Below are positions 574-17,145 of a stretch of 17,145 nucleotides of DNA, one piece after another; the stretch's first letter is position 1, and each line of letters begins with the position of its first letter. The stretch lies in the IMG/VR virus record IMGVR_UViG_2737471824_000005, positions 1 to 17,145 of that record, one strand, 5' to 3'. A program made the translations under genes and the position numbers. The notes under the pieces were generated by a model, which was given only the letters and a program-made list of their open reading frames with translations, made no database searches and was not told the DNA's origin. This stretch comes from a virus (Duplodnaviria > Heunggongvirae > Uroviricota > Caudoviricetes).

Positions 574-989
574 CGGATTATCAGCCATACAGGAAAGGAA
601 CTGTGCTTGCCCCAACTGGGCCATGCAATCATCTTCATGTGATTTGTAATGATCCTGTTTATTACCCCGTTAACGATTGTTATTGTGTTTTAGTTGTTAA
701 TATTTCTAGTATCAAGGATGGTGTCCCCCACGATCCGTCTTGCGTCTTGAATTCTGGTGATCATCGCTTTATCAAGCATCCAAGTTATGTTGTTTACGCT
801 GAAGCTATAATTTGGCGAGTGGATAACATGGTTAGAAAGCAGCGATCGGGTGAGATTTCCGTTCATGATGATATGCCAGAAGCTACATTCAATAGAATTC
901 TGGACGGTTTTGATATATCTGATGAAGTTACGCCAAAGAACCTTAAATTTAAAAATAAATATTGCGTATCATCTATTGATGATGAGTAA
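570..989 (+). CDS. hypothetical 139-aa protein, translationally coupled partner of the Panacea-like gene (candidate toxin)
   Basis: ATG at 570 overlaps upstream stop (ATGA); no domain recognised by eye. Confidence 0.4.
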   Translation: MTDYQPYRKGTVLAPTGPCNHLHVICNDPVYYPVNDCYCVLVVNISSIKDGVPHDPSCVLNSGDHRFIKHPSYVVYAEAIIWRVDNMVRKQRSGEISVHDDMPEATFNRILDGFDISDEVTPKNLKFKNKYCVSSIDDE

Positions 990-1028
990 ACAACAGGAAT
1001 TGTTTCGGTATAGCTTCTGGAGTTTTCT

Positions 1029-1202
1029 ATGGAAGATCAAAAAGCAACCAAGCCACAGGTTAAGTTCGACACAATGAAAGCATTCGCAGGTATGGGTGCT
1101 GCTGTTGAAGTTCTGATGAAGGCTGCTCCTAATGCGTTCACTCACGCTACTGTCTCTGGTAAAGAGCAGCAGGGTAAGCTTCGTCGTCGCAAAGCAGCAT
1201 GA
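1029..1202 (+). CDS. small hypothetical protein (57 aa) 'MEDQKATKPQVKFDTMKAFAGMGAAVEVLMKAAPNAFTHATVSGKEQQGKLRRRKAA'
   Basis: Below the ORF-track length cutoff; GGAG 6 nt upstream of ATG 1029; codon choice biased to GCT/GTT/CGT/GGT; followed by a strong hairpin plus T-run. Confidence 0.35.
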   Translation: MEDQKATKPQVKFDTMKAFAGMGAAVEVLMKAAPNAFTHATVSGKEQQGKLRRRKAA

Positions 1203-1221
1203 TCATAGCTGGTGCTTTTTG

Positions 1222-1250
1222 AAAACCCGCCTTTAGGCGGGTTTTTTCTT
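1222..1250. terminator. putative bidirectional rho-independent terminator between convergent genes
   Basis: AAAACCCGCC-ttta-GGCGGGTTTT hairpin (1223-1246) followed by T-run on + strand; lies directly after the PrtN-like stop on the - strand. Confidence 0.6.
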
Positions 1251-1531
1251 TAGTGATGTTCTTTGCCCTTCTGTTTGCCTGTTCTGACCTGTTCCCACTC
1301 GATACGTCCTTCTTCTCGTCTTTTGTCTATGTATTCCGCAAGATCCTGAATATTGATGCAACGTTTTGCTTTTTGTGATGCACCGATGCGATATGTAGGT
1401 ACAGGCAACTTACAAGCGTTTGCTTTTGCTTCTGCTGTGGCTGGACTCATACCAAAGTATTTTTGACTAACTGCTGAGAGTTCAATGTTTGGGGTATTGA
1501 ATTCAGCCATCAGTAAAAACAAGGTATTCAT
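1250..1531 (-). CDS. PrtN-like (pyocin-activator family) small DNA-binding phage regulator
   Basis: 93 aa; segment 'YFGMSPATAEAKANACKLPVPTYRIGASQKAKRCINIQDLAEYID' matches the PrtN/excisionase-like HTH family pattern as I recall it; GGAG 8 nt upstream of ATG. Confidence 0.55.
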   Translation of the reverse strand: MNTLFLLMAEFNTPNIELSAVSQKYFGMSPATAEAKANACKLPVPTYRIGASQKAKRCINIQDLAEYIDKRREEGRIEWEQVRTGKQKGKEHH

Positions 1532-1567
1532 ATCATTTCTCCATCATAACCGGCTGCACCCGGTGAG

Positions 1568-2383
1568 TTACTTATTCATTTCAATAATATTATTTTCTAT
1601 CATTGATTTATTTAAAACCAAAGAAGGAGCAAGATGGTTGTCTATTTTAAACAATGCATAACTTTTAAACTGTTGGTGATATCCGTAACTAATAAGGATG
1701 CTAGAAAAATCTCTTAATTCATCTTCTTTTAAAAAATTAAAATGAAATGGGTTGTCACCATTTATGAACAATGAAACATCTATTATGCAGTATTTCTCTC
1801 CGTTGTCATTTGCATAGAAAAAAATATAAGACATTCTGTTTGTTAAGACAATGCCATTAAATTTTCTTATGTCTGTAGCTATTTTGTTTTCCATGTTTGG
1901 TGCTACATATTTATTTTCAGAAATACATTTAATTTCATCTCCAGATGTCGTGATTATATAAAAATGAAACTTATCAGAAATATCTAACTTAACTACGCCA
2001 TCATTATTGTAAAGGCTGCTAAATTTTGGTGGTTCAACTTTTAAAGAATCATAGTTCTTTAAAAGAAGAGGGGAGTCAAATTTAATAACTTGTAGTATCC
2101 CTTTACCTTCAACCTCCATATTGATTGAAGATATAGCAATTGCATTATCTCTTTTATTATTCAGGATTATGGTTGATATATGCATGTCATATATTCTACT
2201 TGCATTTGCTGAATACGACACTGTCACCTTTTTTGATATTTTTTGCACGCCAAAATATATAGTGAAGGCAGCGGCAAGAATAGATAAGAATTTAATGTCA
2301 AATAAGGACCATAGCCACATTAGTTGCTCAATTGCTTCAGAGTTAATCATTTGCTTTACCATTATCGCTGTAATACAACACAT
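1568..2383 (-). CDS. AT-rich hypothetical protein with N-terminal transmembrane anchor (candidate moron)
   Basis: ORF open to 2401 but that codon is TTG; first ATG at 2383 (others at 2362, 2350); hydrophobic segment 'LMWLWSLFDIKFLSILAAAFTIYFGV'; visibly lower GC than flanking genes; no recognisable domain. Confidence 0.5.
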   Translation of the reverse strand: MCCITAIMVKQMINSEAIEQLMWLWSLFDIKFLSILAAAFTIYFGVQKISKKVTVSYSANASRIYDMHISTIILNNKRDNAIAISSINMEVEGKGILQVIKFDSPLLLKNYDSLKVEPPKFSSLYNNDGVVKLDISDKFHFYIITTSGDEIKCISENKYVAPNMENKIATDIRKFNGIVLTNRMSYIFFYANDNGEKYCIIDVSLFINGDNPFHFNFLKEDELRDFSSILISYGYHQQFKSYALFKIDNHLAPSLVLNKSMIENNIIEMNK

Positions 2384-2504
2384 GTGTGTATATATACGCA
2401 ATGCAATTATTTTGCAAGTGCTTCATTTACTATCAATAGCTACGTCACGTTATTGTTTAATGGTTCTTTATAGGGGCGGCAATAGTTAAAATTATCGCTT
2501 CCGT

Positions 2505-2526
2505 AAATGCCCCCGCAGGGGCATTT
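2505..2526 (-). terminator. hairpin downstream of the DUF2303-like gene (possible terminator or RNA stability element)
   Basis: AAATGCCCC-cgca-GGGGCATTT 9-bp stem; no clean U-run on either strand. Confidence 0.3.
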
Positions 2527-2538
2527 GCAGTAATGAAA

Positions 2539-3363
2539 TCAGGCGGTGAAAGTACCAATAAAGGTTTCTACTTTGCTGTCTTTGAATTTCTCAACAAGCA
2601 GATCACGAAATTCGTTAGCCATTTCTTCCTGTACCGCTTCCAGCTGAATAATGCGCAGAACCAGTACAGGACGATCGCCAGTGATAATGCTGAGGCGTAA
2701 TTTAAACGGACGTTCTTTCAGACCTTCAAACGGAACGCATTTAAATTCAAATGCCACTGGCATAATGTCTTTGGTCTTCGCTTCGACAGACTCCATCAGG
2801 GAGCGTTTGCCGCTGAAGTCATTATCTTCAAAATCAGCGGTCTGGTTCGCTTCAATTGTGATTTTACGGATCGCCGCAGCCGCTTTGGTTGCCTGAATGG
2901 CGTCACCATTAGCATCAAAGCCCACAAGGTAGTCGGCCCAGTCTTCAATCCATTCTGCCAGTGACTTCTGGGAGTTACGCTCGCCATTAACAGACAACAG
3001 AGCAGAGAACGGAGCTGTCTTTTTCAGTTTGAGAGTGGCGGTGTTATCTGCGTGACCTGGTTCATCAATAGTACCCAGGTTAAGAACACTGACGGCACGC
3101 ATATTATCAGCATCGATAAAGCAGCGGGTGCCTTCATCTGCAAGATCTTTAGAATAACGAGTAAAGTCATCGATGCTGGCAGTGGAAAGCGCACCACGGA
3201 AACGGAAACGATTTAAATTTAATTTTTCCAGATCATGAATGCGGAAATTCTCAGGCAATGCCACAGCATCGGCACCAATCTTACTGATAATTTCATTAAC
3301 ACCCTGAGCAGAAATAAGGGCATGGATTTGATTAATTGCGGTTGCGTCTAAGTTCTGAGACAT
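2539..3363 (-). CDS. YfdQ-like prophage protein (DUF2303 family), 274 aa
   Basis: ATG at 3363 with GAGGA upstream; length and position downstream of a 120-aa gene match the yfdP-yfdQ pair of enterobacterial prophages; assignment from memory of family length and context, not an alignment. Confidence 0.55.
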
Positions 3364-3428
3364 AATAAGTCCTCACTATATAAAGATATTCAGTGATGAG
3401 ATAAATAATCGGTTAATTAAGAACGATA

Positions 3429-3791
3429 TTAATGACCTGCTGCGCGGAGTTTTCCGTCAGGTTCACCGGCAAGAGTCAGTAATTGTCCCTGGTCTTCCTG
3501 CAGAATAGTCAGGCGACCACCGCGATTGACATACATCGGCGTTTCGGTGGTGTCTTCTTCGGAAATTTTCCCGCGGTTAGTCGGGCGAACATATGAGAGT
3601 TTGTGTTTGATTTTCACACGGTTCTCATCAAATGGTTCGATTTCCAGGTTGAGTGAGACCTTACCTTTGGTTTTCGTATTCATCACACCGGAAGCGACTT
3701 CACTGAGAACTGCGCCGATTTTGGTTTCAAATACGCCGCCGTCCAGCTCCCCAATAAATGCCTGCACATCAGTACTGCGTTCGCTAGCCAT
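3429..3791 (-). CDS. YfdP-like prophage protein, 120 aa
   Basis: Track ORF extends to 3977, but ATG at 3791 is preceded by AGGAG 8 nt upstream; product 'MASERSTDVQAFIGELDGG...' is 120 aa. Confidence 0.5.
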   Translation of the reverse strand: MASERSTDVQAFIGELDGGVFETKIGAVLSEVASGVMNTKTKGKVSLNLEIEPFDENRVKIKHKLSYVRPTNRGKISEEDTTETPMYVNRGGRLTILQEDQGQLLTLAGEPDGKLRAAGH

Positions 3792-4406
3792 TTTGCTGCT
3801 CCTAATCATATCGACCCTGCAAGGTCGGTTGGTTTCTCCACAAAACAGAGAAGAACACCTGCGGTGGCAGCCGCCCGGATGGATTTGGTTATGAGCCCGT
3901 CGTCCGGTGATGCTCTTCTCTGTTTTGTAAAAAGAGCGGTACCAGCCGGAAGCAAGTGTACAAACTGGTACCGCCAAAGCAGTGGCTGTTGTGGTGACCG
4001 GTGCTGATCTCCGGCTTGCGGTTATTTCAGACTCTCACGGGCGTTTAATTGCCCCGCCGAACAGCTCTTTTCCGCATTAGCTGCAATGTCTTTCGCGCAT
4101 CAGCCTGCGCATTCACCACAACGCTGAGAGCACTTAGCCAGTTACGGCACCACACTTTGTCGCGGTTCCATAAATGTCCTCATCGTTGCACCCTGGTCTC
4201 TTCCCAGGCGTCAAACCGAATCGCCACGCTGGTTAGGCGTCTTATCAGCATCATCATTGACTTGCACATTCCGGCTACCTGGTTTGTTTGCCCGAGCAAG
4301 GAGTGGATTGTCCCCTTTAACGTCCCCAGACCGCTAACGACGCATGTGCCATACGCCGTGTTACAACCAAATTTTGTTTAATCTTGCCTGTGCTGTGTTT
4401 CTTTTA

Positions 4407-4439
4407 GATACATTATGTATCCCAAAGGTACATTGTCAA
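4407..4439 (-). promoter_or_regulatory. putative leftward sigma70 promoter (pL-like) overlapped by a perfect 15-bp palindrome operator
   Basis: On - strand: TTGACA (4434-4439), 16-nt spacer, CATAAT (4412-4417); palindrome GATACATtATGTATC at 4407-4421. Confidence 0.45.
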
Positions 4440-4442
4440 GTA

Positions 4443-4466
4443 TAAAAAAACCTGCCGAAGCAGGTT
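4443..4466 (-). terminator. rho-independent terminator after the repressor gene
   Basis: AACCTGC-cgaa-GCAGGTT hairpin followed on the - strand by a run of 7 U; sits 12 nt past the cI stop. Confidence 0.6.
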
Positions 4467-4477
4467 ATAAATATTGA

Positions 4478-5152
4478 TTAGGCCTTTATTATGTATCTTC
4501 TTGGTTTTCCTGAGAAAATCACTGTACCAATTATAGAGCAATTACCGTTAATCTTAATGTAAGGCTCAGGCCAGTTTGGGTTTAATGCTTTGAGATAACG
4601 CTGTGTTCCATCTTCTATCAACCGCTTGAAGGTGGTTTCGCCTGTATCGTGCATCAATGCAATAACGTCGTCACCGTGGCAGGCAGGGACTTCAGGATCA
4701 ACAAAAATCATGTCTCCCGGGCGGTACTCATCAATCATTGAATCACCAATCACCCGCAAGATATAAGTCATTTCGCCACAGGGTACAGGGCAGGGATAAG
4801 TTTCTGCTGTGCTCAAATCAACCTCAGAATAGCCAACTTCTTTCCATGCTCCGGCCTGTACCCATGATATGACAGGGACTAACGTTATTTGTTTGTTAGT
4901 GATTGAAACGTCAGGTTTTTTTGTGATGTTCGTTGTCTGGTGTTCTTGATCAAGCCATCCGACAGGCAGGTCGAAACATTTTTCGATGTGCCGTGCCATG
5001 CTGTCACCGATATTTTTAGTTGCACCATCTCCCATAAACCTGCTGGTCTGGGTTGGCTCGCGATCAATCATGGTGGCAAAGGAAGAATTCCCGCCAACAC
5101 CATCTCTCAGTTTTCTGGCGTTAGACCGCCGGATGTCATGGACTGTTTTCAT
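4478..5152 (-). CDS. cI: CI-type prophage repressor (N-terminal HTH, C-terminal S24 LexA-like autopeptidase)
   Basis: 224 aa; S24 motifs 'VIGDSM' (Ser) and 'FKRL' (Lys); divergent to a Cro-like gene; start 18 nt from an operator palindrome. Confidence 0.8.
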   Translation of the reverse strand: MKTVHDIRRSNARKLRDGVGGNSSFATMIDREPTQTSRFMGDGATKNIGDSMARHIEKCFDLPVGWLDQEHQTTNITKKPDVSITNKQITLVPVISWVQAGAWKEVGYSEVDLSTAETYPCPVPCGEMTYILRVIGDSMIDEYRPGDMIFVDPEVPACHGDDVIALMHDTGETTFKRLIEDGTQRYLKALNPNWPEPYIKINGNCSIIGTVIFSGKPRRYIIKA

Positions 5153-5169
5153 AAAGAAATTAAAACCTT

Positions 5170-5186
5170 TGTACCGATAAGGTACA
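5170..5186. promoter_or_regulatory. 17-bp operator palindrome in the divergent cI/cro control region
   Basis: TGTACC-gataa-GGTACA, perfect 6-5-6 inverted repeat; a second imperfect copy is centred near 5229 overlapping the cro Shine-Dalgarno. Confidence 0.55.
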
Positions 5187-5242
5187 AGTATCTTGAAGGT
5201 TCATCTCAATCATGTAATATGTATACCGGAGGTACATATTGT

Positions 5243-5443
5243 ATGAAAGCGTATTGGGACTCTTTAACCAAAGAACAGCAGGGTGAGTTGGCCGGAAAAG
5301 TTGGCTCAACACCAGGCTACTTACGGCTGGTTTTCAATGGTTATAAAAAAGCCAGTTTTGTGCTGGCTAAAAAACTTGAGCAATGCACGTCAGGTGCAAT
5401 TACGAAATCTGACTTAAGACCGGATATCTATCCGAAAGATTAA
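5243..5443 (+). CDS. cro: Cro-like small HTH regulator (66 aa)
   Basis: Real start is the internal ATG 5243 with GGAGG 10 nt upstream; product 'MKAYWDSLTKEQQGELAGKVGSTPGYLRLVFNGYKKASF...'; divergent to cI. Confidence 0.6.
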   Translation: MKAYWDSLTKEQQGELAGKVGSTPGYLRLVFNGYKKASFVLAKKLEQCTSGAITKSDLRPDIYPKD

Positions 5444-5474
5444 CAGAACACCTTCAATTTTTAACCACAGAACG

Positions 5475-6038
5475 ATGAGGCTAACCGTGGGTAAGCATCA
5501 CTGGAAAGTAGAAAAACAGCCTGAGTGGTACGTGAAAGCTGTCAGAAAAACTATCGCGGCGTTGCCGGGGGGTTACGCTGAAGCTGCTGAGTGGCTGGAT
5601 GTAACAGAGAACGCTTTATTCAACCGCCTTCGTGCAGATGGCGATCAGATTTTCCCGCTGGGATGGGCAATGATTTTACAGCGCGCGGCTGGCACTCACT
5701 ACATTGCGGATGCTGTCGCACAGTCTGCTGGTGGGGTGTTTGTATCGCTTCCTGAAATTGAGGAAGTAGAGAACGCCGATATAAACCAGCGCCTGCTGGA
5801 AGTCATCGAACAGATCGGGAGTTACTCAAAGCAGATTCGTTCGGCAATCGAAGATGGGGTAGTGGAGCCACACGAGCAGACAGCAATTAATGATGAGTTG
5901 TATCTGTCAATTTCGAAGCTCCAGGAGCATGCAGCACTGGTCTACAAAATCTTTTGCGCTCCAGAAAAGAGTGACGCCCGCGAGTGTGCAGCTCCGGGCG
6001 TCGTGGCGTTTTGTGTCTGTGGAGAAACTAACGCATGA
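5475..6038 (+). CDS. CII-like / phage regulatory protein (family uncertain)
   Basis: Positioned immediately after cro; alternative GTG start at 5487 has GAGG upstream; stop overlaps next start (ATGA). Confidence 0.4.
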   Translation: MRLTVGKHHWKVEKQPEWYVKAVRKTIAALPGGYAEAAEWLDVTENALFNRLRADGDQIFPLGWAMILQRAAGTHYIADAVAQSAGGVFVSLPEIEEVENADINQRLLEVIEQIGSYSKQIRSAIEDGVVEPHEQTAINDELYLSISKLQEHAALVYKIFCAPEKSDARECAAPGVVAFCVCGETNA

Positions 6039-6871
6039 ACAGTTTAACGGCAAATAACCGTTTGTCGCAACAGCTGGTGGTCAGCGTCGCTGAACACCTG
6101 TTGTTACGGCATGAATGCAGATTACCAAATCACCTGGCTGTAAGTAACCACAGAGAACTTTACCTGACTGTGGGGGGCGAGTTGTGCAGGAACTTAACCG
6201 CTGGTTTCGTGACGGAAGAGGACTTTATGTTCATGTTATTCGTTAGGAGCCAGAAACACAGCGCGTTATCTATCTTCGCAAAGACTACCCGCATGAGTGC
6301 TTTAGTCCTTTGTGGAAATTCAGGCGTGATTTTGTTGAGTGTGAAGGACCACCAGCACATTGATTCTGCCATTCCGGGACGTTACACTGTTCAGGCACCT
6401 TATAAAGCGGGTGCCGGGATTGGCGTCCTGGAATTGATCAAGGCGATATATGACGCGCCAGCGTCTTTTTTATCGTCCGCATTTGCTCACATCAAAGTTA
6501 TGGTGGGCTGGGCGGGGGCATCGAAAGATGCGCCGGTTTCCTTGATCACCGGTTACGCCAACCCCGTTCAGTTCACCACCAGCGAAATTGGCGTTTCCGG
6601 TGGTGGAAGTATTTCACCGATCAAGGAGGCTGCCATCATGGCTACTGTCCCAGCCCTCACTCGTCTGAATGATGAAGACTTACATAAACTCAGTTATGTA
6701 ACAACTGCACTACGTGCTCTGCGCAAGGTAACTCTTTCGGATCCGCAGGCACATCAGGTTCTGGTAGAAACCCTTCTTAACTTGCAAGCTGAACGTATTC
6801 GTCTGGCGGATAAGGCTAATTTTCATATTCACCGTCTCCTGAATATCAGCGGAGGGCATCGTCATGCTTAA
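6035..6871 (+). CDS. hypothetical 278-aa protein; C-terminal part may derive from a tape-measure gene
   Basis: GGAG 9 nt upstream of ATG; coupled to flanking ORFs; segment 'LLNLQAERIRLADKAN' resembles my recollection of an internal lambda H segment (unverified). Confidence 0.4.
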   Translation: MNSLTANNRLSQQLVVSVAEHLLLRHECRLPNHLAVSNHRELYLTVGGELCRNLTAGFVTEEDFMFMLFVRSQKHSALSIFAKTTRMSALVLCGNSGVILLSVKDHQHIDSAIPGRYTVQAPYKAGAGIGVLELIKAIYDAPASFLSSAFAHIKVMVGWAGASKDAPVSLITGYANPVQFTTSEIGVSGGGSISPIKEAAIMATVPALTRLNDEDLHKLSYVTTALRALRKVTLSDPQAHQVLVETLLNLQAERIRLADKANFHIHRLLNISGGHRHA

Positions 6872-7100
6872 TCCGTTGATCCTCAATATTTGCCGTTTGC
6901 TTCAGCGTAAAAAAATATCAATTCCTACAGTTGGGCAGTGGTACACCACGCCTGCAGGGCATGTTCTACGTGTTAGCCTGGTTGACCGTGAATGCCAGAA
7001 GGTGATTTGTGAACCGCTGGGCCGTAATTACCGCGTCAGTATGCCGCTTATAGCCTTTCGCTCCGGAAAAAACATGAAGCATCTCGGAGGTGCAGCATGA
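6864..7100 (+). CDS. hypothetical 78-aa protein (possible tape-measure-derived fragment)
   Basis: GGAGGG 6 nt upstream of ATG; overlaps neighbours by 8 and 4 nt. Confidence 0.3.
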   Translation: MLNPLILNICRLLQRKKISIPTVGQWYTTPAGHVLRVSLVDRECQKVICEPLGRNYRVSMPLIAFRSGKNMKHLGGAA

Positions 7101-7327
7101 GTATGGAGCTGATGGTTAAAGCGATGAAAATTCGAGTGGGTATTGGTGGTTCAGGTATGGCGATGTTTGCCCCGCAGTACAACATCGAGATCAATAACGA
7201 TGGCACGAACGGGCAGATAGGTCCGGCTGCCCTGAAGGTGGTTTATGACCTTGGGAAAAAAGCGGCAGCGGACTTTATGCAACAGCAGGCCCGTGATGGT
7301 GGTCGGTTAAGTGGAGCATATCGGTAA
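7028..7327 (+). pseudogene. H: 3' remnant of tail tape measure gene H
   Basis: Frame opens after a stop at 7025-7027; 'INNDGTNGQIGPAALKVVYD...DGGRLSGAYR' matches the lambda H C-terminus as I recall it; an internal ATG at 7097 has a GGAGG SD; stop overlaps the M start (TAATG). Confidence 0.6.
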
Positions 7328-7656
7328 TGGAGACGTTTCACTGGAAAGTGCGCCCGGATATGAATGTGGTATCAGAGCCGAAAGTGGTGACAGTGAAGCT
7401 GGGCGATGGTTATGAACAGCGTCGTGCGGCGGGACTGAATAACCAGTTGTCGATTTACAGCGTGACGATACGTGTTCGTAAATGTGAACACCCATCTTTA
7501 AAAGCCTTTCTGGAACGGCACGGTGGCGTCCGCGCATTTCAGTGGACGCCACCTTATGACTGGAAGCCGATCAGGGTGGTTTGTCGTAAATGGTCGGCAA
7601 GCGTGGGGGCGCTGTGGGTAACCATAACGGCAGATTTTGAACAGGTCGTGGCATAG
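7327..7656 (+). CDS. M: minor tail protein M
   Basis: 109 aa, same length and clear similarity to lambda gpM (e.g. 'GDGYEQR', 'HGGVRAFQWTPPYDWKPIRVVCRKWSA'); conserved lambda gene order. Confidence 0.9.
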   Translation: METFHWKVRPDMNVVSEPKVVTVKLGDGYEQRRAAGLNNQLSIYSVTIRVRKCEHPSLKAFLERHGGVRAFQWTPPYDWKPIRVVCRKWSASVGALWVTITADFEQVVA

Positions 7657-7665
7657 GAGGCTCTG

Positions 7666-8364
7666 ATGCAGGATATTCCACAGGAAACACATCATGAGAC
7701 GACACGCCTCACTCAGTCAGCCCAGGTGGTGCTCTGGGAAATCGATCTGACAGTGGTCGGTGGAGAACGTTATTTTTTCTGTAATGAGCAGAACGAAAAA
7801 GGTGAGCCGGTCACCTGGCAGGGGCGACAGTATCAGGCGTATCCCATTCAGGGGACGGGATTTGAACTGAACGGCAAGGGCAGTGCTGCCCGTCCGACAC
7901 TGACGGTTTCTAACCTGCACGGCATGGTCACCGGGATGGCGGAAGACCTGCAGAGTCTGGTCGGAGGAACGGTGGTCCGGCGTAAGGTTTACGCCCGCTT
8001 TCTGGATGCGGTGAACTTCGTCAACGGAAACAGCGAAGCCGATCCGGAGCAGGAGGTGATCAGCCGCTGGCGCATCGAGCAGTGCAGCGAACTGAGCGCG
8101 GTGAGTGCCTCTTTTGTACTGTCCACGCCGACGGAAACGGACGGTGCCGTTTTTCCGGGACGTATCATGCTGGCCAACACCTGCACCTGGACCTATCGCG
8201 GTGATGAGTGCGGTTATCACGGTCCGGCGGTCGCGGATGAATATGATCAGCCGACGTCCGATATCACGAAGGATAAATGCAGCAAATGCCTGAGTGGCTG
8301 TAAGTTTCGCAATAATGTCGGCAACTTTGGCAGCTTCCTTTCCATTAACAAACTTTCGCAGTAA
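7666..8364 (+). CDS. L: minor tail protein L
   Basis: 232 aa; near-identical over long stretches to lambda gpL as recalled; AGGAGG SD. Confidence 0.9.
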   Translation: MQDIPQETHHETTRLTQSAQVVLWEIDLTVVGGERYFFCNEQNEKGEPVTWQGRQYQAYPIQGTGFELNGKGSAARPTLTVSNLHGMVTGMAEDLQSLVGGTVVRRKVYARFLDAVNFVNGNSEADPEQEVISRWRIEQCSELSAVSASFVLSTPTETDGAVFPGRIMLANTCTWTYRGDECGYHGPAVADEYDQPTSDITKDKCSKCLSGCKFRNNVGNFGSFLSINKLSQ

Positions 8365-8369
8365 ATCCC

Positions 8370-9113
8370 ATGACACAGACAGAATCAGCGATTCTGGCGC
8401 ACGCCCGGCGATGTGCGCCAGCGGAGTCGTGCGGCTTCGTGGTGAGAACGCCGGAGGGGGAAAGATATTTTCCCTGCGTGAATATCTCCGGTGAGCCGGA
8501 GGATTATTTCCGGATGGCTCCGGAGGACTGGCTGCAGACAGAAATGCAGGGTGAGATTGTGGCGCTGGTCCACAGCCACCCCGGTGGTCTGCCCTGGCTG
8601 AGTGAGGCCGACCGGCGGCTGCAGGTGCAGAGTGATTTGCCGTGGTGGCTGGTTTGCCGGGGGGCGATTCACAAGTTCCGCTGTGTGCCACATCTTTCCG
8701 GGCGGCGCTTTGAGCACGGGGTGACGGACTGTTACACGCTGTTCCGGGATGCTTACCATCTGGCGGGGATTGAGATGCCGGATTTTCATCGCGAGGATGA
8801 CTGGTGGCGTAACGGTCAGAATCTCTATCTGGATAATCTGGAGGCCACAGGGCTGTATCAGGTGCCGTTGTCAGCGGCGCAGCCGGGCGATGTGCTGCTG
8901 TGCTGTTTTGGTTCATCGGTGCCGAATCATGCCGCCATTTACTGTGGTGACAGCGAGCTGCTGCACCATATTCCTGAACAACTGAGCAAACGAGAGAGGT
9001 ACACCGACAAATGGCAGCGACGCACACACTCCCTCTGGCGTCACCGGGCATGGCACGCATCTGCCTTTACGGGGATTTACAACGATTTGGCCGCCGCATC
9101 GACCTTCGAGTGA
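8370..9113 (+). CDS. K: tail assembly protein K (JAB/MPN + NlpC/P60 domains)
   Basis: 247-aa ORF; JAMM motif 'HSHPGGLPWLSEAD'; Cys/His of NlpC/P60 ('DCYTLF', 'HAAIY'); the classically annotated 199-aa lambda K would start at internal ATG 8514. Confidence 0.85.
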   Translation: MTQTESAILAHARRCAPAESCGFVVRTPEGERYFPCVNISGEPEDYFRMAPEDWLQTEMQGEIVALVHSHPGGLPWLSEADRRLQVQSDLPWWLVCRGAIHKFRCVPHLSGRRFEHGVTDCYTLFRDAYHLAGIEMPDFHREDDWWRNGQNLYLDNLEATGLYQVPLSAAQPGDVLLCCFGSSVPNHAAIYCGDSELLHHIPEQLSKRERYTDKWQRRTHSLWRHRAWHASAFTGIYNDLAAASTFE

Positions 9114-9658
9114 AAACGGGGTCCGAAGCCATCCGGGCGCTGGCCATGCAGAACCCGGCGTTTCGTCAGAAACTGAGCGACGGCTGGTACCAGGTACGCA
9201 TTGCCGGGCGTGATGCAGGTGAAACCGAATTGTCTGCCCGTCTTAATGAGCCGCTGGCAAATGGTGCCGTGATCCACATCGTGCCGCGTCTGGCGGGAGC
9301 TAAAAGTGGAGGTGTGTTTCAGGTGGTGCTGGGGGCGGCGCTGATTGCGGTGGCATGGTGGAACCCTGTGGGCTGGCTGGGTGCCGCGGCTGTATCGGGC
9401 ATGTATGCGGCAGGGGCCAGTATGATCCTGGGCGGAGTGGCGCAGATGCTGGCACCGAAAGCCAGGACGCCCACGGCAGCAAGTACAGATAACGGCAAAC
9501 AGAACACCTATTTCTCCTCACTGGATAACATGGTTGCCCAGGGCAATGTTCTGCCGGTTCTGTACGGTGAAATGCGCGTGGGGTCTCGCGTGGTTTCTCA
9601 GGAGATCAGCACGGCAGACGAAGGGGACGGTGGTCAGGTTGTGGTGATTGGTCGCTGA
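9011..9658 (+). CDS. I: tail assembly protein I
   Basis: 215 aa, strong similarity to lambda gpI at both termini; overlaps K by 103 nt, which I recall is also true in lambda. Confidence 0.85.
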   Translation: MAATHTLPLASPGMARICLYGDLQRFGRRIDLRVKTGSEAIRALAMQNPAFRQKLSDGWYQVRIAGRDAGETELSARLNEPLANGAVIHIVPRLAGAKSGGVFQVVLGAALIAVAWWNPVGWLGAAAVSGMYAAGASMILGGVAQMLAPKARTPTAASTDNGKQNTYFSSLDNMVAQGNVLPVLYGEMRVGSRVVSQEISTADEGDGGQVVVIGR

Positions 9659-9676
9659 TGCAAAATGTTTTATGTG

Positions 9677-9696
9677 AAACCGCCTGCGGGCGGTTT
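9677..9696 (+). other. hairpin between I and J (possible attenuator)
   Basis: AAACCGCC-tgcg-GGCGGTTT 8-bp stem followed by TGTCATTT. Confidence 0.3.
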
Positions 9697-9718
9697 TGTC
9701 ATTTATGGAGCGTGAGGA

Positions 9719-10705
9719 ATGGGTAAAGGCAGCAGTAAGGGGCATACCCCGCGCGAAGCGAAGGACAACCTGAAGTCCACGCAGCTGCTGAGTGTGATCG
9801 ATGCCATCAGCGAAGGGCCGGTTGAAGGTCCGGTGGATGGATTAAAAAGCGTGCTGCTGAACAGTACGCCGGTGCTGGACAGTGATGGGAATACCAACAT
9901 CGCCGGTGTCACGGTGGTGTTCCGGGCCGGTGAGCAGGAGCAGACTCCGCCGGAGGGATTTGAATCCTCCGGCTCCGAGACGGTGTTGGGTACGGAAGTG
10001 AAATACGACACGCCGATCACCCGCGCCATCACGTCGGCAAACATCGACCGACTGCGCTTTACCTTCGGCGTGCAGGCACTGGTGGAAACCACCTCAAAGG
10101 GTGACAGGAATCCGTCGGAAGTCCGTCTGCTGGTTCAGATACAACGTAACGGTGGCTGGGTGACGGAAAAAGACATCACCATTAAGGGCAAAACCACCTC
10201 GCAGTATCTGGCCTCGGTGGTGGTGGGTAGCCTGCCGCCGCGCCCGTTTAATATCCGGATGCGCAGGATGACGCCGGACAGCACCACAGACCAGCTGCAG
10301 AACAAAACGCTCTGGTCGTCATACACCGAAATCATCGATGTGAAACAGTGCTACCCGAACACGGCACTGGTCGGCGTGCAGGTGGACTCGGAGCAGTTCG
10401 GCAGCCAGCAGGTGAGCCGTAATTATCATCTTCGCGGGCGCATTCTGCAGGTGCCGTCGAACTATAACCCGCAGACGCGGCAATACAGCGGTATCTGGGA
10501 CGGAACGTTTAAGCCGGCATACAGCAACAACCCGGCCTGGTGTCTGTGGGATATGCTGACCCACAGCAACACGTCTCTGGCGTGGGGAGCTGGCGTGCAG
10601 TTTAACCCGACCGAATCCGTGGCCATTGATATTGCTTATGAAGGCTCCGGCAGTGGCGACTGGCGCACTGACGGTTTCATCGTGGGTGTCGGTTATAAGT
10701 TCTGA
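9719..10705 (+). CDS. J: truncated tip attachment protein J (first ~283 aa) fused in-frame to the last ~45 codons of lom
   Basis: N-terminus matches lambda gpJ ('MGKGSSKGHTPREAKDNLKSTQLLSVIDAISEGP...') up to '...WCLWDMLTH'; then continues as Lom-like C-terminus 'AWGAGVQFNPTESVAIDIAYEGSGSGDWRTDGFIVGVGYKF'. Confidence 0.8.
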   Translation: MGKGSSKGHTPREAKDNLKSTQLLSVIDAISEGPVEGPVDGLKSVLLNSTPVLDSDGNTNIAGVTVVFRAGEQEQTPPEGFESSGSETVLGTEVKYDTPITRAITSANIDRLRFTFGVQALVETTSKGDRNPSEVRLLVQIQRNGGWVTEKDITIKGKTTSQYLASVVVGSLPPRPFNIRMRRMTPDSTTDQLQNKTLWSSYTEIIDVKQCYPNTALVGVQVDSEQFGSQQVSRNYHLRGRILQVPSNYNPQTRQYSGIWDGTFKPAYSNNPAWCLWDMLTHSNTSLAWGAGVQFNPTESVAIDIAYEGSGSGDWRTDGFIVGVGYKF

Positions 10706-10731
10706 TTAGCCAGGTAACACAGTGTTATGAC

Positions 10732-10759
10732 AGCCCGCCTGTTCAGGCGGGCTTTTTTG
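10732..10759 (+). terminator. rho-independent terminator after the J-lom fusion
   Basis: AGCCCGCCTG / CAGGCGGGCT stem followed by TTTTTT. Confidence 0.7.
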
Positions 10760-10769
10760 TGGGGTGAAT

Positions 10770-13700
10770 ATGGCAGTAAAGATTTCAGGTGTACTGAAAG
10801 ACGGCACAGGAAAACCGGTACAGAACTGCACAATCCAGCTGAAAGCAAAACGTAACAGCACCGCGGTGGTGGTGAACACGCTGGCCTCAGAAAATCCGGA
10901 TGAAGCCGGGCGTTACAGCATGGACGTTGAGTACGGTCAGTACAGCGTTATTCTGTTGGTGGAAGGCTTCCCGCCATCGCATGCCGGGACCATCACCGTG
11001 TATGAAGACTCACAACCGGGTACGCTGAATGATTTTCTCGGTGCCATGACGGAGGATGATGCCCGTCCGGAGGCACTGCGCCGTTTTGAGCTGATGGTGG
11101 AAGAAGTGGCGCGTAACGCGTCCGCGGTGGCACAGAACACGGCAGAGGCTGCTATTTCTGCCTCTCAGGCCGAAGAGTTCGCGAGCAATGCTTCTGAATA
11201 TGCGCTGAATAAGTTCACGTTCTATAAAACGCCGAGCGATCCGGACGGTACAATTGCAGGCCTTGCTGCTACTACCAGCGGGCAGTCTTTCCGTGTAGCG
11301 GAAGGCCCGGGAGCAACAGCGGCATTCAAAACCTACGAGAACCAGGATGGCGTGGCTATACTACAGGCTTCTCAGCCAGGCACAGCTGCTATAACAGGGA
11401 CAATCCGCGAATTTCCCACGCTGGAGGCGGCACAGGCTGATGCAGACGCTGGCAATATTCTTTCTGGTTCAAAATGCTGGGTAACCAGTGCTATAAATAC
11501 CTCGCTGGCTGACGAGTATGTAAATACATCCGGGGTTATGACTGCAACCGGGAGAACAATTATTTCCCAGTACAGCCTATCTTCGTCTATATCAAGAGAA
11601 GCAACCAGAAGAAAAAATGGTGATTATCAGGATTTGATTGAATTCAAATCTCTTGATGATACAGCACTACCATTACCGGAAAATTCAGTATTAGAATTTT
11701 TGTCTCTGGCAACCACTACGGATGTAAACACAAACTTCTATCGCCTTGTTTTTTCTTCGCTGGGTTCTGAGGTTGCGTCACTGGTTTTTCCTGGGACGAA
11801 CACCCAGTATTCTGATGGTAAATTCTGGTCAGCGTATCGCCTGTTCCGATTTCAGGATTTGAAGTATGTTTCCATTCTGGAAACGACCAGTAGTGTAGTT
11901 CGGGTTCGCTATGACCTGCCGGCTGGGTTTGGTGTTCCGGTAGCAGGCTCAAACTATATTGCACTTGATATTACAGGCAAGTTTTATCCGGCGCAGGCAG
12001 GCTCAGTTAACTCCGTCACAAGGAAGTCAATATCCGGGACAGCAATTGCCAACGCCATTCAGTTCGTGGTTACCATCGCTGAACTTACGGCTGCTGGTTA
12101 TACGGCGTCGACCGTTGTTGATTACATCAACTCAATAGCGCCAGATTGCCTCTTTGCGGCATATGCGGCATATGATACGACGATTGCCCAGACAGGGTTT
12201 GAAGATTTTTTCAGGATTCAGTTACCTGCTGGTGATTATACCGTTAGCCGTGATGGCTTTGCGCCTTCAGGACTGGCAGTGTTACCTGCCGGTGCGTATT
12301 CGGTATGGCGTAAAAAGCCTGTAAGGCAGGTATTTGTTGGAAACTTCCTGAGAAATGTTGCTGATGTTAAAAATCTGCTGTCGGCAGAATATAAAAACTA
12401 TCCCGTTGAGCTTAAGGTGTCGTTTGGTCCCGGCGAAGTGCCAGACTCCGATGCGCTGAAGGTGATGGACGCTGACGGCAACGTGTTTGACTGCCAGTTT
12501 GCGGATAACGTTTATCCCAATCCACGCCTGAAATCGAACACCGGATACCATGCCGACGGCTCCCTGGCATCAGGGTCTGTGTTCATCACCGATACCCTGG
12601 CATCAGGACAGCAGAAATATTACGAACTCAGGGCATACAATCGTCGCCGCCAGGACCTGGCCTCAGAGTCCTTCCCGCAGCTCGTGAGGGTGGCTGACGG
12701 GTTCACCGTTACCGTGGGCGGGTATGTGTATTTTTTCCAGCGCCAGAACAGCCTGGGGCTGACCAGTATCACCGACCCGGCAGGACAGACGCACAGTTTT
12801 GCGCATTCCTGTTACTGTACCGGGATTGTCTCCGGCGGATCCTCAAGTAACCAGATGGTGCTCGGTGCATCACTGCGCATGGTTAATACCGGGCCGGTCT
12901 TTACTGAGCTGGAGCTGACCGTCAGAAACCGGACCATCGGAACACTGGCTGAAGGGGCGTTACAGTCCACAGTACGCTACCGGATTTTCAAAAATGGCAA
13001 GGTGCTTATCCGGGTCATGACCACGGCTACGCAAGATATTCCGGCTGGAGTATTATTTGGTGCATATTCCCGTCTGAACCTGAATGATGGTGCATATACC
13101 TTTGATGCCGCTAGAGCACTGACGTACTGGACGGATTCAGTCACCGGCAAGCGATTTACGGCCACGACGGTCTTTGCTAATGGGGATATCCACCGAGATG
13201 GCCCTGCTTATGGGCCAACGCGCCCGATACGGGCAACGGCGCTGCAACCCACAGGCACAACAACTCGGCTGGACGCGGGATGGCTTTTCGTTGACCTGAA
13301 TGACGATTCATTCCTGAACTGGCCTGTGCCAAAAAACTGGACGTGGACACATGAGACATGGATTGACTGCGACAACACCATCACCAGTTCCACCTCAGAG
13401 GTTAATGCACTGCTGGTAAGTCAGGCTAACAACCGCCCGGTAGGGTTCATGGGTGATTGCAGTTATGCAGGTGTTCTGCGGCTGGACATGCTGGAGAAAA
13501 TCGCCTGTCACGTCAGGGGATCCGTTGAGTGGTGGAAAAGCACTGACGCTACTGTTTATGGTGGCGGACCCGATGTGAAAACGCAGTTCTATTGCCACAT
13601 GGCAGAGATTTTTCTGTTAGAAAAGTATGGCATCAGCACGCTGAACACAGTGTATACGAATTTTAAATCGTACATGAGGGGATTTGGCGGCATAACTAAT

Positions 13701-14504
13701 CCAGGTATTATGTTCACTGATGGATGGTGGGGGTTGCAGTTCCAGTCGCGTCTGAGTATTCCGTGCTATGAGTGGCTCTACAAAATGGCGGTGAAGGCCG
13801 GAGATACAGCCAAACAAACCGAGCTGAAGGCGGGGATTAAATCCCTCGCGGATGCCGTCATGGTGTCATATAACACCTATGGTGGCGTGGCTCTGGTGGG
13901 GACAGCCACAAACTCAGGAAACAGCAACTCTAACGCGACAGCCATGCGCGTGCTGGCGCTGGCGATTTATATGGGGCTGGATACCGGCGGGACGTACCTT
14001 GCTGCATTCAATGCGCTGGAGACCTTCATCACGAACTCAGCGACATTCATGAAAGCGGAAAACATTATTCTCGATGGCCCGTCGGATTCCACGCTGAAGA
14101 GCATGTACCTGCCGTACATGGTTTACGCCACTAATAACTACCTGCTGGCCTGCAAGCTGCTTAACCGGACACCAAAGTTTGACCTGGTGAATTTTATCCT
14201 GACAGCGTCAAACAGCGCGGGAGGATTCAGTGAGGTGGATTACTGCATCTCTGAAAGCCGACGTGGTGGCGCGAACACCATCGCGTTTGCGTTACTGCCG
14301 CTGTTTCAGTCCGCCAGGCCGTCAGCAATGATTGCCGCAAAATCGCTGTTCGGAATTTTTGAGACGCAGTACGGGCCGAAACCGGGACTACCAAAGCGCT
14401 TCTTTGATTTTGACGGCAGCAGTGCGGCTGGCAGCACGATGTATGACCCGTGCTTTGTGGCGTCAACGCTTGCCGACCTTTGGCTGTCATATGGCTACAA
14501 TTAA
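10770..14504 (+). CDS. stf: side tail fibre protein, chimeric: lambda Stf-like N-terminal ~150 aa plus ~1,100-aa non-Stf distal region
   Basis: ATG at 10770 (track starts at GTG 10764); N-terminus matches lambda/Rac Stf; the Ala/Ser-rich shaft and Gly/His-rich distal repeats of lambda Stf are absent. Confidence 0.8.
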
Positions 14505-14662
14505 TGGAAAATAGAAATCAGGATGCTGCAGATCTGGAAATCGCAACGGAGGAAGAAACCTCGTTGCTGGAAGCCTGGAAAAAGTATCGGGTGTTGCTGA
14601 ACCGTGTTGATACATCAACTGCACCTGATATTGAGTGGCCTGCGGTCCCTGTTATGGAGTAA
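14504..14662 (+). CDS. tfa: tail fibre assembly protein remnant (C-terminal 52 codons of tfa)
   Basis: '[47 protein letters not shown]' matches the conserved Tfa C-terminus; ATG shares a base with the stf stop (TAATG). Confidence 0.6.
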
Positions 14663-14676
14663 TCGTTTTGTGATAT

Positions 14677-14710
14677 GCCGCAGCAACTTGTCATGGCAGG
14701 ATACTGCGGC
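14677..14710 (+). terminator. possible terminator of the tail fibre operon
   Basis: GCCGCAG / CTGCGGC 7-bp stem with a large 20-nt loop, followed by T-rich sequence. Confidence 0.3.
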
Positions 14711-14774
14711 TGATTTGTGAATTTAAATAGTGTGTTTATTGCTTTATATATAAAGGATTTAATGGATTACATAT

Positions 14775-16145
14775 CTATGATATCCCTGAAATGTCCTCTT
14801 CAAGCTCTTTTACTGATTTCGCAATTTTAAATTTAAATTTTCTCTCTATTTCACTATTGCTAAGTTTTTTTTCATTCTCTTTCCCTATCCACATAGAAAC
14901 AATTTCTCGTTTCTGAGATATATGTAGATTGTCAAAGTTAGGTATGTATTTAAAAGTCTCCGCTCTACCCCTGCGGAGTTCATAGAAAGTTTTAATCAAA
15001 GACTTTGGTTTTATTTCTGATGAAAGGCCGAATCGGCGGATAAGATTATTGATCGTATGATTAACAGCTCGAAGTTGAGCTGTTGACGTTATTTGTGAGA
15101 AGTACGATACCCATCCCAATCGTTTACCTTCAAACACACATCCCGTAATTCTAAGATTTAGTTTCCACTGACAATATGCAACAGCTCGTTCTTTATCGCG
15201 CTTATTTTTAGCTTGTAGTAGAGCGTGTCTATATGCAGTAAAAATTTTTGCTAAGGATGACTCAAATCTAAGAATGCTCTCATGTTTTATCAATAATTCT
15301 CGATTTTTTATGTGGTAGCCCAAAAAGTTGAAACTTTCATCCAAGCTGCCTACTTTGGATTTTGAGTTCTCTTCATTTAATGGATGTGGGTTTAAATTTA
15401 ATGATTGAAGCTTATCAATGATATGAGAAGCTATTTTTGTTGCTTGATATTTTGGTGTTAAAATAAGAATGTCATCAACGTATCGCATGTACCATATGTC
15501 ATGCATTTTATTGATTTCATCATCGAAATTAGATAGTGATATTTCAGCTAAAATGTTTGATATCGCTAATCCCTGAGGTACTCCTCTGGTATTATTAGGG
15601 ATACCTTTGCTTCCTGTGGTTCCACTTACAGTAGGCACGATTAATGATGATGTTATTAACTGTCTAATTTCTTTTTTTCTAATTTTATTTTTTATTGCAT
15701 TAATTATCAATTTATGTTCAATTGAAGGATAGAAACTTTTAAGATCTATTTTTGCATATTCAGCATATAGACTGTTGTTTAATGCTTCTTTCAATGAGTC
15801 AATTACTGTATGTGGTAGTTTTAATCTGGACTTAGGATATATTTCCGTAAGGCATTCACAGAGAGCTCTAAGAGTAATTCTGTCCCTAGCAGTTGGTATG
15901 GAAATCTGTCTGGGTGTAGAGTTAGCGCCTTTAGATATTAATTTTTCTTTATATGCTGTAAATTTGTAATTGCCAGAATTAACCTTTTCAAAAATGAAAG
16001 TGATCTCATTTTTTATTGTCAAATCAAGTTTTGATGGGCGAATCCGATCTATGCCAATCGCTCCTGATTCTTTGATTTTTTCAGAGTATACTTTTAGAAG
16101 ATTTTTTTTCGAGAATGACTTTTTAAAAATTCTGCTTGCAGTCAT
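14775..16145 (-). CDS. reverse transcriptase, retron-like or UG/Abi (DRT) type
   Basis: RT motifs: 'IGIDRIRPS', 'IDLKSFYPSI' (motif A), 'RGVPQGLAISNILAEISL' (motif B), 'YVDD' at 15471-15482 (motif C), 'FLGY', and thumb-like 'RITG' at 15141-15152; track start 16151 is TTG, first ATG is 16145; overlaps the upstream membrane gene; AT-rich. Confidence 0.9.
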   Translation of the reverse strand: MTASRIFKKSFSKKNLLKVYSEKIKESGAIGIDRIRPSKLDLTIKNEITFIFEKVNSGNYKFTAYKEKLISKGANSTPRQISIPTARDRITLRALCECLTEIYPKSRLKLPHTVIDSLKEALNNSLYAEYAKIDLKSFYPSIEHKLIINAIKNKIRKKEIRQLITSSLIVPTVSGTTGSKGIPNNTRGVPQGLAISNILAEISLSNFDDEINKMHDIWYMRYVDDILILTPKYQATKIASHIIDKLQSLNLNPHPLNEENSKSKVGSLDESFNFLGYHIKNRELLIKHESILRFESSLAKIFTAYRHALLQAKNKRDKERAVAYCQWKLNLRITGCVFEGKRLGWVSYFSQITSTAQLRAVNHTINNLIRRFGLSSEIKPKSLIKTFYELRRGRAETFKYIPNFDNLHISQKREIVSMWIGKENEKKLSNSEIERKFKFKIAKSVKELEEDISGIS

Positions 16146-16674
16146 AGTCAATCCAAAGATATATTAATGGGAGTATATAAAGTGCGGCAGTAATAAATAT
16201 TCGAAGTAATATCCATAAAATAACAATTATTTTTTCTTTTTGTGTGGGGATCCTCGTCTTAAGTCCAACTTGAGTTACCCTTGAAATTTTATCATCTATG
16301 TCACGGTGATTCTCAACCTCATTGAGCAAATTAAAATATTTTTCTTTCTGTTCAAGAGATAACTGTTGACTGGTGGTAATGTCAAAATAGAGTCGCTGTA
16401 GTGCAATATAATTCCTTCTCATGGCTATTGCTCGACCACGAAAATCTAGGTTAGATACGATCAGAGAAATACCCAGTAGAGCCACTGAAAGTATCGCCGC
16501 AACGACATCTGTATTATCTCCTAGAACCTTTGGAAATCGCAACGTTACAATTGAAAGTACCGCACTCAATATAGCATACCAAACGAGGATAAATTGAGAG
16601 TGTTTTTCAAGCCATTCTAGTCGATGGTGCGCTTGGATACGTGCTTTATATGTAAACCAAATATTGTCATGCAT
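16123..16674 (-). CDS. 3-TM membrane protein, candidate effector of the RT system
   Basis: 183 aa; hydrophobic helices 'FILVWYAILSAVLSIVTL', 'VVAAILSVALLGISLIVS' and 'IIVILWILLRIFITAALYILPLIYLWI'; AAGGA SD; 3' end overlaps the RT start by 23 nt. Confidence 0.65.
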   Translation of the reverse strand: MHDNIWFTYKARIQAHHRLEWLEKHSQFILVWYAILSAVLSIVTLRFPKVLGDNTDVVAAILSVALLGISLIVSNLDFRGRAIAMRRNYIALQRLYFDITTSQQLSLEQKEKYFNLLNEVENHRDIDDKISRVTQVGLKTRIPTQKEKIIVILWILLRIFITAALYILPLIYLWIDYDCKQNF

Positions 16675-16694
16675 AAAAGATCCTTTTTAAAAGC

Positions 16695-16829
16695 GGAAGG
16701 GGCAGGATATATTGGAACCGTTGAACATCCTGCCCGGCAGGATCAGTGAGCATAAGCTCAACAGTAAAATATTACTGTTCATTATCAGAGCCGCCCTTGC
16801 ATGCGCAAGAGGAAAAACCTGCCCCATCC
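16695..16829 (-). ncRNA. candidate structured ncRNA (retron msr-msd-like) in the leader of the RT operon
   Basis: 12-nt inverted repeats (11/12 match) at 16818-16829 and 16695-16706 flank hairpins at 16796-16809, 16760-16779 and 16747-16760, and a GGCAGGAT/ATCCTGCC palindrome at 16727-16743. Confidence 0.35.
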
Positions 16830-16835
16830 CTTTGA

Positions 16836-16865
16836 ATTATTACAATTTAATGATCTTAAAGTCAA
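16836..16865 (-). promoter_or_regulatory. putative sigma70 promoter of the RT cassette
   Basis: On - strand: TTGACT (16860-16865), then TG-extended -10 (TAATAA/AATAAT, 16836-16844); predicted start falls at the first base of the upstream inverted repeat. Confidence 0.4.
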
Positions 16866-16896
16866 TACAAGTGAATGGTGTCCAGAGATGATGAAC

Positions 16897-17145
16897 TTAA
16901 TGAACAAACCACTCGTCAGCAGACTCCCAGGTATCTTTCAGAGTCTCCTGAACAAAAGTTTTAGCTGAATCTTTATCAGCGGTGCGCGTAACAGAAAGGC
17001 CATCGTTGCTGGTGGCTTTTACGATCACTTCTACATCGTCATAACGTTTACTGATGCGTCGGGTTAATTCTTCCTTTAACGCATCCACAGCACCGGTTGG
17101 CATTTTAGTCATTTTTTCTTTGGCTATGCAGATTTCAATACGCAT
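16897..17145 (-). CDS. dinI: DinI-family protein
   Basis: 82 aa, '[10 protein letters not shown]...[11 protein letters not shown]' matches the DinI termini as recalled; start codon is the last triplet of the window. Confidence 0.85.

Follow-up and report, generated by a model that had tools for sequence, protein, structure and literature searches.

The window, that is, the whole stretch of DNA analysed here (17,145 nt), begins with a gene for a Panacea-domain protein, followed by genes for PrtN-like, YfdQ and YfdP proteins, a LexA-family (YmfK-like) repressor encoded on the minus strand, and then ymfT, ymfL and an ash-family gene. Downstream of these lie a 78-aa ORF, a 76-aa ORF, the tail-tip genes M, L, K and I, a chimeric ORF that we denote J'-'lom, the side-tail-fibre gene stf and a remnant of tfa (Table 1). 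The right end is occupied by the genes for RT_UG17, a SLATT-domain protein and DinI, all on the minus strand.

Several features of this element merit mention in their own right. The protein with a Panacea (SocA_Panacea) domain encoded at the element's left end (window 1-573) is followed by a 139-aa ORF without a Pfam domain, and the two may form a toxin-antitoxin pair; PADLOC gave no match for them. Within the early region, Rfam matches above the gathering scores were obtained for isrK (64 bits, 6395-6471, plus strand) and for the C4 antisense RNA (82 bits, 6496-6583, plus strand), both located inside the ash-family ORF (6035-6871). Near the right end, a reverse transcriptase of group UG17 (PADLOC E = 1e-158) and an overlapping SLATT-domain gene (14775-16674, minus strand) are, among the prophage's cargo genes, a candidate for a defence-associated RT system.

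The window matches a part of the 43.7-kb contig JUCS01000097.1 of the E. coli draft genome GCA_000798255.1 with 100% identity. Over positions 1-7142 and 14518-17145, it shares 99.9% identity with an element of E. coli strain NT1F34 that lies between a 5' fragment of dusA and a DinI-integrase-dusA array. In the source contig, the 282 bp that precede the window match the NT1F34 dusA locus as well, and both flanks of the contig show 99.75-100% identity to the NT1F34 element, part of the dusA' fragment included; the integrase and dusA would lie past the contig end. The dusA gene is a known integration target (PMC4482086). Judged from these matches, the host element is probably the remnant of a lambdoid prophage integrated at dusA in the E. 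coli chromosome.

Table 1. Features of the J'-'lom locus and Pfam domains of gene product J (positions are those of the window unless J residues are given)
Feature	Position	Strand	Description	Basis
Second in-frame fusion ORF	7097..7327	+	76 aa; junction 7142/7143	Alignments with NT1F34 (L003), MS20649 (L004), lambda H and MIN12
M	7327-7656	+	Intact	Pfam Phage_min_tail
L	7666-8364	+	Intact	Pfam Phage_tail_L
K	8370-9113	+	Intact	Pfam Prok-JAB and NLPC_P60
I	9011-9658	+	Intact	Pfam Lambda_tail_I
Chimeric J'-'lom ORF	9719..10705	+	328 aa, 987 nt, ATG start	ORF list and exact-sequence look-up
5' part of gene J	9719..10564	+	846 nt, codons 1-282	BLASTP against lambda J, Pfam, megablast
Deletion junction	10561..10564	+	4-bp microhomology CCAC	Three-way DNA alignments with lambda and USMARC-49610 (L002), and with MIN12
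3' end of lom	10565..10705	+	Codons 154-199 and stop, ending GVGYKF	BLASTP, DNA match to intact-lom relative
Terminator-like hairpin	10732..10753	+	9 pairs (7 G-C), then TTTTTT; just past the ORF	Consensus scan only
stf, side tail fibre	10770..14504	+	Intact, 1,244 aa	Pfam phage_tail_N at residues 1-134; phrog_20877 at 122-1241
tfa 3' remnant	14518..14691	+	About the last 175 bp; 96.6% identical to lambda 22413-22587	MIN12 annotation and alignment
FNIII-A_GpJ	J residues 86-207		Kept in fusion	Pfam
Phage-tail_3 (hub core)	J residues 330-498		Lost from fusion	Pfam
Ig_J	J residues 610-714		Lost from fusion	Pfam
Ig_J_second	J residues 716-818		Lost from fusion	Pfam
Phage_Tail_Tip	J residues 845-972		Lost from fusion	Pfam
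Ig_GpJ_C	J residues 1001-1132		Lost from fusion	Pfam

The product of the chimeric ORF is deposited in GenBank as KHI12381.1, 'hypothetical protein PU40_22775' (exact-sequence look-up). In BLASTP searches, residues 1-282 of lambda J align without gaps with residues 1-282 of the ORF (274 of 282 identical, 97%; E = 0), and residues 153-199 of a 199-aa E. coli prophage Ail/Lom protein align with residues 282-328 (47/47; E = 6e-31), with residues 162-206 of lambda Lom matching residues 284-328 (36 of 45, 80%; E = 8e-24). Pfam places FNIII-A_GpJ at residues 86-207 (E = 2.4e-41) and the end of the Ail_Lom profile (positions 152-199 of 199) at residues 281-328 (E = 5e-23); in agreement, the ORF matches both phrog_31 ('central tail fiber J') and phrog_108 ('Lom outer membrane protein') in PHROGs. 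Among solved structures, the relatives of residues 1-287 are lambda J chains, the best being 9e7m_Ja and 8iyk_J, and the chains of Lom (9wso), Ail (3qra) and OmpX (1orm) match the last 45-51 residues only. On these alignments, the scores of both the J and the Lom matches are far beyond chance. The original prediction had read the ORF as the N-terminus of J up to about residue 283 joined to the last ~45 residues of a Lom-type protein ending in GVGYKF. Both halves of that reading hold, the C-terminal segment being Lom-derived and the J part well short of full length, with the last J residue now set at 282 and the Lom part at 46-47 residues.

At the DNA level, the megablast matches to phage J genes end at ORF nucleotide 845/846. 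The possibility that the ORF represents a natural family of short J-Lom proteins was rejected, each half being DNA-identical to a separate intact gene. Six further members of the 90% protein cluster of the fusion were inspected (P0004, P0007, P0008, P0009, P0014 and P0015), and all six are plain J fragments that have no Lom tail.

The undeleted counterpart of the locus is present in E. coli MIN12 (NZ_CP069657.1), which has intact J (1,137 aa) and lom (199 aa) genes. Splicing of MIN12 J nt 1-846 to lom nt 460-600 reproduces the 987-nt ORF with 0 mismatches. MIN12 and the window differ at 1 position in 3,427 nt left of the junction (window 7138-10564; 99.97% identity) and are 99.88% identical right of it (window 10561-14667); the offset between the two alignments in MIN12 is exactly 3,096 bp. 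The absent sequence consists of J nt 847-3414 (codons 283-1137), the 69-bp spacer and lom nt 1-459 (codons 1-153). The loss of distal J and proximal lom had been put at roughly 3 kb, and the 3,096 extra bp that MIN12 carries at the exact junction bear out that estimate. Other relatives give comparable offsets between the left and right alignments: 3,094 bp with respect to lambda (window 7189-10563 corresponding to lambda 12965-16349, and window 10578-11149 to 19458-20029), 3,096 bp with respect to WP2-S18-ESBL-08 (L012), and 3,181 bp with respect to DA33133, which carries a longer J. Window 10561-14520 is 100% identical to WP2-S18-ESBL-08, in which lom is intact.

Base-by-base alignment shows J running up to ...GCTGACCCAC and lom beginning at CCACAGCAAC..., with the tetranucleotide CCAC, read as ACC CAC in J and as CGC CAC in lom, shared at the junction, which places the break at 10561-10564. 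Beyond CCAC, the parental J and lom sequences are unrelated on either side, and the break points are abrupt; neither a long repeat nor an insertion sequence or recombination site marks them. Because CCAC is the sole sequence common to both break points, the event points to illegitimate, microhomology-mediated joining as opposed to homologous or site-specific recombination. The mechanism would have been RecA-independent illegitimate recombination at CCAC, through either replication slippage or end joining. The J and lom frames would have matched by chance, with an expectation of 1 in 3, and, the frames being matched, the frame opened by the J start codon continues over 46 Lom codons and closes at the stop of lom. 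The absence of substitutions in the ORF compared with the spliced MIN12 sequence suggests that the deletion is recent. We consider it almost certain that the ORF is a pseudogene derived from a single recent 3,096-bp deletion within the lambdoid prophage remnant at dusA in the E. coli chromosome.

Given that the source is a draft assembly and that the junction lies on a 43.7-kb contig, the question arises whether J could have been wrongly joined to lom in the assembly, both genes being intact in the strain. The J/lom query matches at a median of 4 places per E. coli genome, and near-identical copies are numerous among the complete genomes, which would create opportunities for such an error. Mis-joins by assemblers, however, arise where repeats equal or exceed the k-mer in length; the join in question shares 4 bp only, so that an overlap of this size is unlikely to have misled the assembler. 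Furthermore, the Logan assembly of run SRR2239613, the product of a different pipeline, contains a 1,973-bp contig that spans the J-lom junction with 100% identity, and the second scar at 7142/7143 is likewise present in this run. This run might derive from the same isolate as GCA_000798255.1, or even represent the same reads, in which case it provides a separate assembly and not a separate strain. Taken with the shortness of the overlap, the agreement of the two assemblies makes an artefact exceedingly improbable.

The exact fusion protein was found in one NCBI contig and one Logan contig only. The J-lom junction is absent from 5,426 complete E. coli genomes, where megablast yielded no single-piece match across it. 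Four matches with 100% coverage were two-piece matches, and the one examined (USMARC-49610, L002) turned out to be a different degraded prophage. A 35-mer spanning the junction had no exact match in the GTDB species genomes, and a 24-mer had none in metagenome contigs or viral contigs. On these scans, the junction seems confined to a single strain or clone.

A deletion within one prophage is not the only way to bring the two gene ends together: illegitimate recombination between two resident prophages, one contributing J and the other lom, would yield a similar join. Several lambdoid prophages are common in an E. coli strain, and the element itself is a mosaic: its early region (4107-7142) is only 97.0% identical to MIN12, compared to 99.9% for the tail region, and the part up to 7142 that so closely follows the NT1F34 dusA element gives way to a tail region that follows MIN12 instead. 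Both sides of the J-lom junction, however, are 99.9-100% identical to one contiguous and colinear segment of one MIN12 prophage, in which they have the same orientation and lie exactly 3,096 bp apart. E. coli 23CRST030 likewise has the J-side and lom-side segments, both 100% identical and arranged as in MIN12. Moreover, if prophages at separate sites exchanged DNA, the chromosome between them would be rearranged too. Recombination between two prophages is, on this evidence, a very unlikely origin of the join, and we retain the single internal deletion as the preferred explanation.

The consequences of the deletion for the encoded protein are extensive. Full-length J contains six Pfam domains, of which the fusion retains one, FNIII-A_GpJ (Pfam searches of lambda J, J of WP2-S18-ESBL-08 and the ORF). 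None of PF24421, PF24489, PF09327 and PF12421, which cover the Ig/FN3, tail-tip fibre and C-terminal receptor-binding parts, was detected by Pfam in the ORF; all four are present in full-length J. The original prediction described the lesion as a deletion of the receptor-binding part of J. That part is indeed gone, but the loss is not confined to it, as five of the six domains and 855 of the 1,137 J residues (75% of J) have been removed. In the structure of the lambda tail, J comprises hub domains, FNIII domains, a helical shaft, a central fibre and a LamB-binding receptor-binding domain (PMC11101478); set against this architecture, the pattern of domain loss indicates that, besides the receptor-binding tip, the hub core has been deleted.

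On the Lom side, the remnant amounts to the last 46-47 residues, compared with intact Lom, which matches the Ail_Lom profile from 1 to 199. The Lom part of the fusion is homologous to OmpX residues 104-148, which we take to be approximately the last two strands of the eight-strand barrel, so that about two Lom strands would be left. The N-terminus of the fusion is the hydrophilic N-terminus of J (MGKGSSKGHTPREAK...), whose 12-residue Kyte-Doolittle mean peaks at 1.0, whereas that of the Lom signal peptide reaches 2.6; judged by hydropathy, the fusion product is without a signal peptide. The C-terminus of the ORF (...GFIVGVGYKF), with its aromatic last residue, is identical to that of intact Lom. 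A C-terminal strand with a terminal aromatic residue is a barrel-assembly signal. With one J domain, about two Lom strands and no signal peptide, the fusion product is predicted to be neither a tail-tip protein nor an outer-membrane protein, and would be cytoplasmic and non-functional.

The element carries a second scar, the 76-aa ORF located between the early genes and M (deposited as KHI12376.1, 'hypothetical protein'), in which codons 1-15 of a helix-turn-helix gene of the early region (its product has 272 aa in relatives) continue in frame into the final 61 codons of H, the tape-measure gene. The only exact sequence common to the two parents at 7142/7143 is TA. The H origin of the end of this ORF is supported by the tape-measure fragments P0017 and P0029; the H genes of lambda and WP2-S18-ESBL-08 are too divergent to place the left junction, which was settled by comparison with MIN12. 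Relative to MIN12, 22,568 bp (~22.6 kb) are missing at this position, including one IS3-family element, and the missing stretch encompasses the PerC, RusA, KilA-N and DUF968 genes, the antiterminator, the lysis, terminase, portal and capsid genes, the tail genes including that for the tail tube, and most of the tape-measure gene. As a result, the early genes lead directly into the end of H and then into M, L, K, I and J'. By comparison with MIN12, the element has undergone at least two deletions, the J lesion being one of them. It had also been proposed that the prophage cannot build a functional tail tip. The J lesion alone would indeed prevent this, but it is not the sole defect: the separate loss of ~22.6 kb of late genes implies that the element makes no particles, whatever the state of J.

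Could the chimera, or the retained block from M through J' to stf, nevertheless be functional, either because a truncated hub poisons the tails of superinfecting lambdoid phages or because an SOS-controlled early operon drives the block? Such a role would fit the fact that both scars are in frame and that M, L, K, I and stf are all intact. Since the ~22.6-kb deletion, these genes lie on the same strand behind the early genes, their stop and start codons overlap, strong terminator-like sites are absent up to 10732, and the remnant adjoins the RT_UG17 and SLATT defence system. The block, however, shows a single mismatch to MIN12 in 3,427 nt, so that its intact reading frames reflect youth and not selection, and two in-frame joins are expected by chance in 1 of 9 cases. 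The junction, moreover, occurs in none of the other genomes, metagenome contigs or viral contigs scanned. Transcription gives no additional reason to postulate a function: in the promoter and terminator consensus scan, 7 promoters were predicted compared to 9.6 in shuffled controls, and 17 terminators compared to 10.7, with no significant difference. Consequently, we make no claim on transcription beyond the terminator-like hairpin past the ORF, which has been kept from the lom-stf spacer, in a region identical in undeleted relatives. If the fusion is transcribed at all, this would occur by read-through from the early operon, through the same-strand genes behind it and as far as the hairpin; the late promoter region is gone, and the deleted 69-bp J-lom spacer is where any promoter proximal to lom would lie. 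On balance, a functional role for the block is extremely unlikely. We give as little credence to a specific scenario of this kind, namely that the two deletions set M-L-K-I-J'-'lom, and perhaps stf, right behind the early operon, and that SOS induction, via the LexA-family YmfK-like repressor, would yield a truncated hub able to co-assemble with and poison the tail tips of superinfecting lambdoid phages, an assembly-interference defence beside RT_UG17 and SLATT.

The stf gene that follows the pseudogene combines a lambda-type N-terminus with a non-lambda C-terminal body. Alleles 100% identical to it are present in the complete E. coli genomes of DA33133, WP2-S18-ESBL-08 and MIN12, where PGAP annotates the identical allele solely as a 445-bp 'partial' pseudogene, leaving ~3.3 kb of the ORF unannotated. 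Pfam coverage of the protein is limited to the first 134 residues; the remainder is covered by phrog_20877, a family of unknown function, and shares 30-38% identity with Klebsiella phage tail proteins. The protein has no PDB relative by sequence, and a single-sequence AlphaFold2 model of the C-terminal 955 residues was unusable (mean pLDDT 35.8). The tfa gene is a remnant after this stf in MIN12 too, indicating that it arrived together with the stf allele, and this shared arrangement suggests that fibres of this type may not use Tfa.

In practical terms, KHI12381.1 would be better labelled a J'-'lom fusion pseudogene and the element a defective prophage. The scar represents a clean, dated case of prophage decay, in which both parental sequences are 100% identical to an undeleted relative, the microhomology is limited to 4 bp, and no later mutations have accumulated; beyond annotation, it matters little. 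Prophage remnants of this kind keep intact tail-tip and tail-fibre genes that are available to infecting phages by recombination.

Compared with the known systems, the fusion resembles lambda gpJ (TipJ family; PDB 8iyk) in its first 282 residues, 97% identical, and the lambda gene order M-L-K-I-J is kept; unlike gpJ, it is without everything from residue 283 to the end, that is, the Phage-tail_3 domain, two Ig domains, the tail-tip fibre and the receptor-binding domain. Similarly, its last 47 residues are those of E. coli Lom (153-199), with the terminal ...GVGYKF kept, but, unlike lambda Lom and the other eight-stranded Ail/Lom/OmpX barrels, it has no signal peptide by hydropathy and covers no more than the final quarter or so of the profile (positions 152-199 of 199). 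Judged by these features, the fusion is related to both gpJ and Lom but lacks what defines a functional member of either family. The near-complete prophage of MIN12 (NZ_CP069657.1, about 4,097,000-4,142,000) shares the order of genes, and its identity is 99.9% across M, L, K, I, the 5' part of J, the 3' part of lom, stf and the tfa remnant; it differs from the element in the window by the presence of full J and lom and of the ~22.6 kb of late genes, by its location at prfC and not dusA, and by a TIR-domain reverse transcriptase in the place of RT_UG17 and SLATT.

Defective prophages of E. coli include e14, Rac and Qin of K-12. Such elements have been documented in E. coli, for example, in the prophage pool of O157 Sakai (PMC2669165), and, like these and the dusA-site islands (PMC4482086), the element in the window has lost structural genes but still carries immunity genes (homologues of ymfK, ymfT and ymfL), genes for tail fibres, and cargo of an accessory or defence kind. 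It differs from them in that its pair of junctions was found only in this strain and that both scars are in frame. The decay of this module is recurrent, as shown by different, independent lesions in other strains: in NT1F34 (L003 10097-11777), a deletion extends from the same helix-turn-helix gene into stf, in MS20649 (L004 18820-19452), J is cut at nt 633, and in USMARC-49610 (L002 5588-6407), an internal J fragment is left. The J-lom junction itself is undescribed, the ORF being annotated only as hypothetical, and the fusion fits a known class, the deletion pseudogenes in defective prophages that are well documented in E. coli (PMC2669165).
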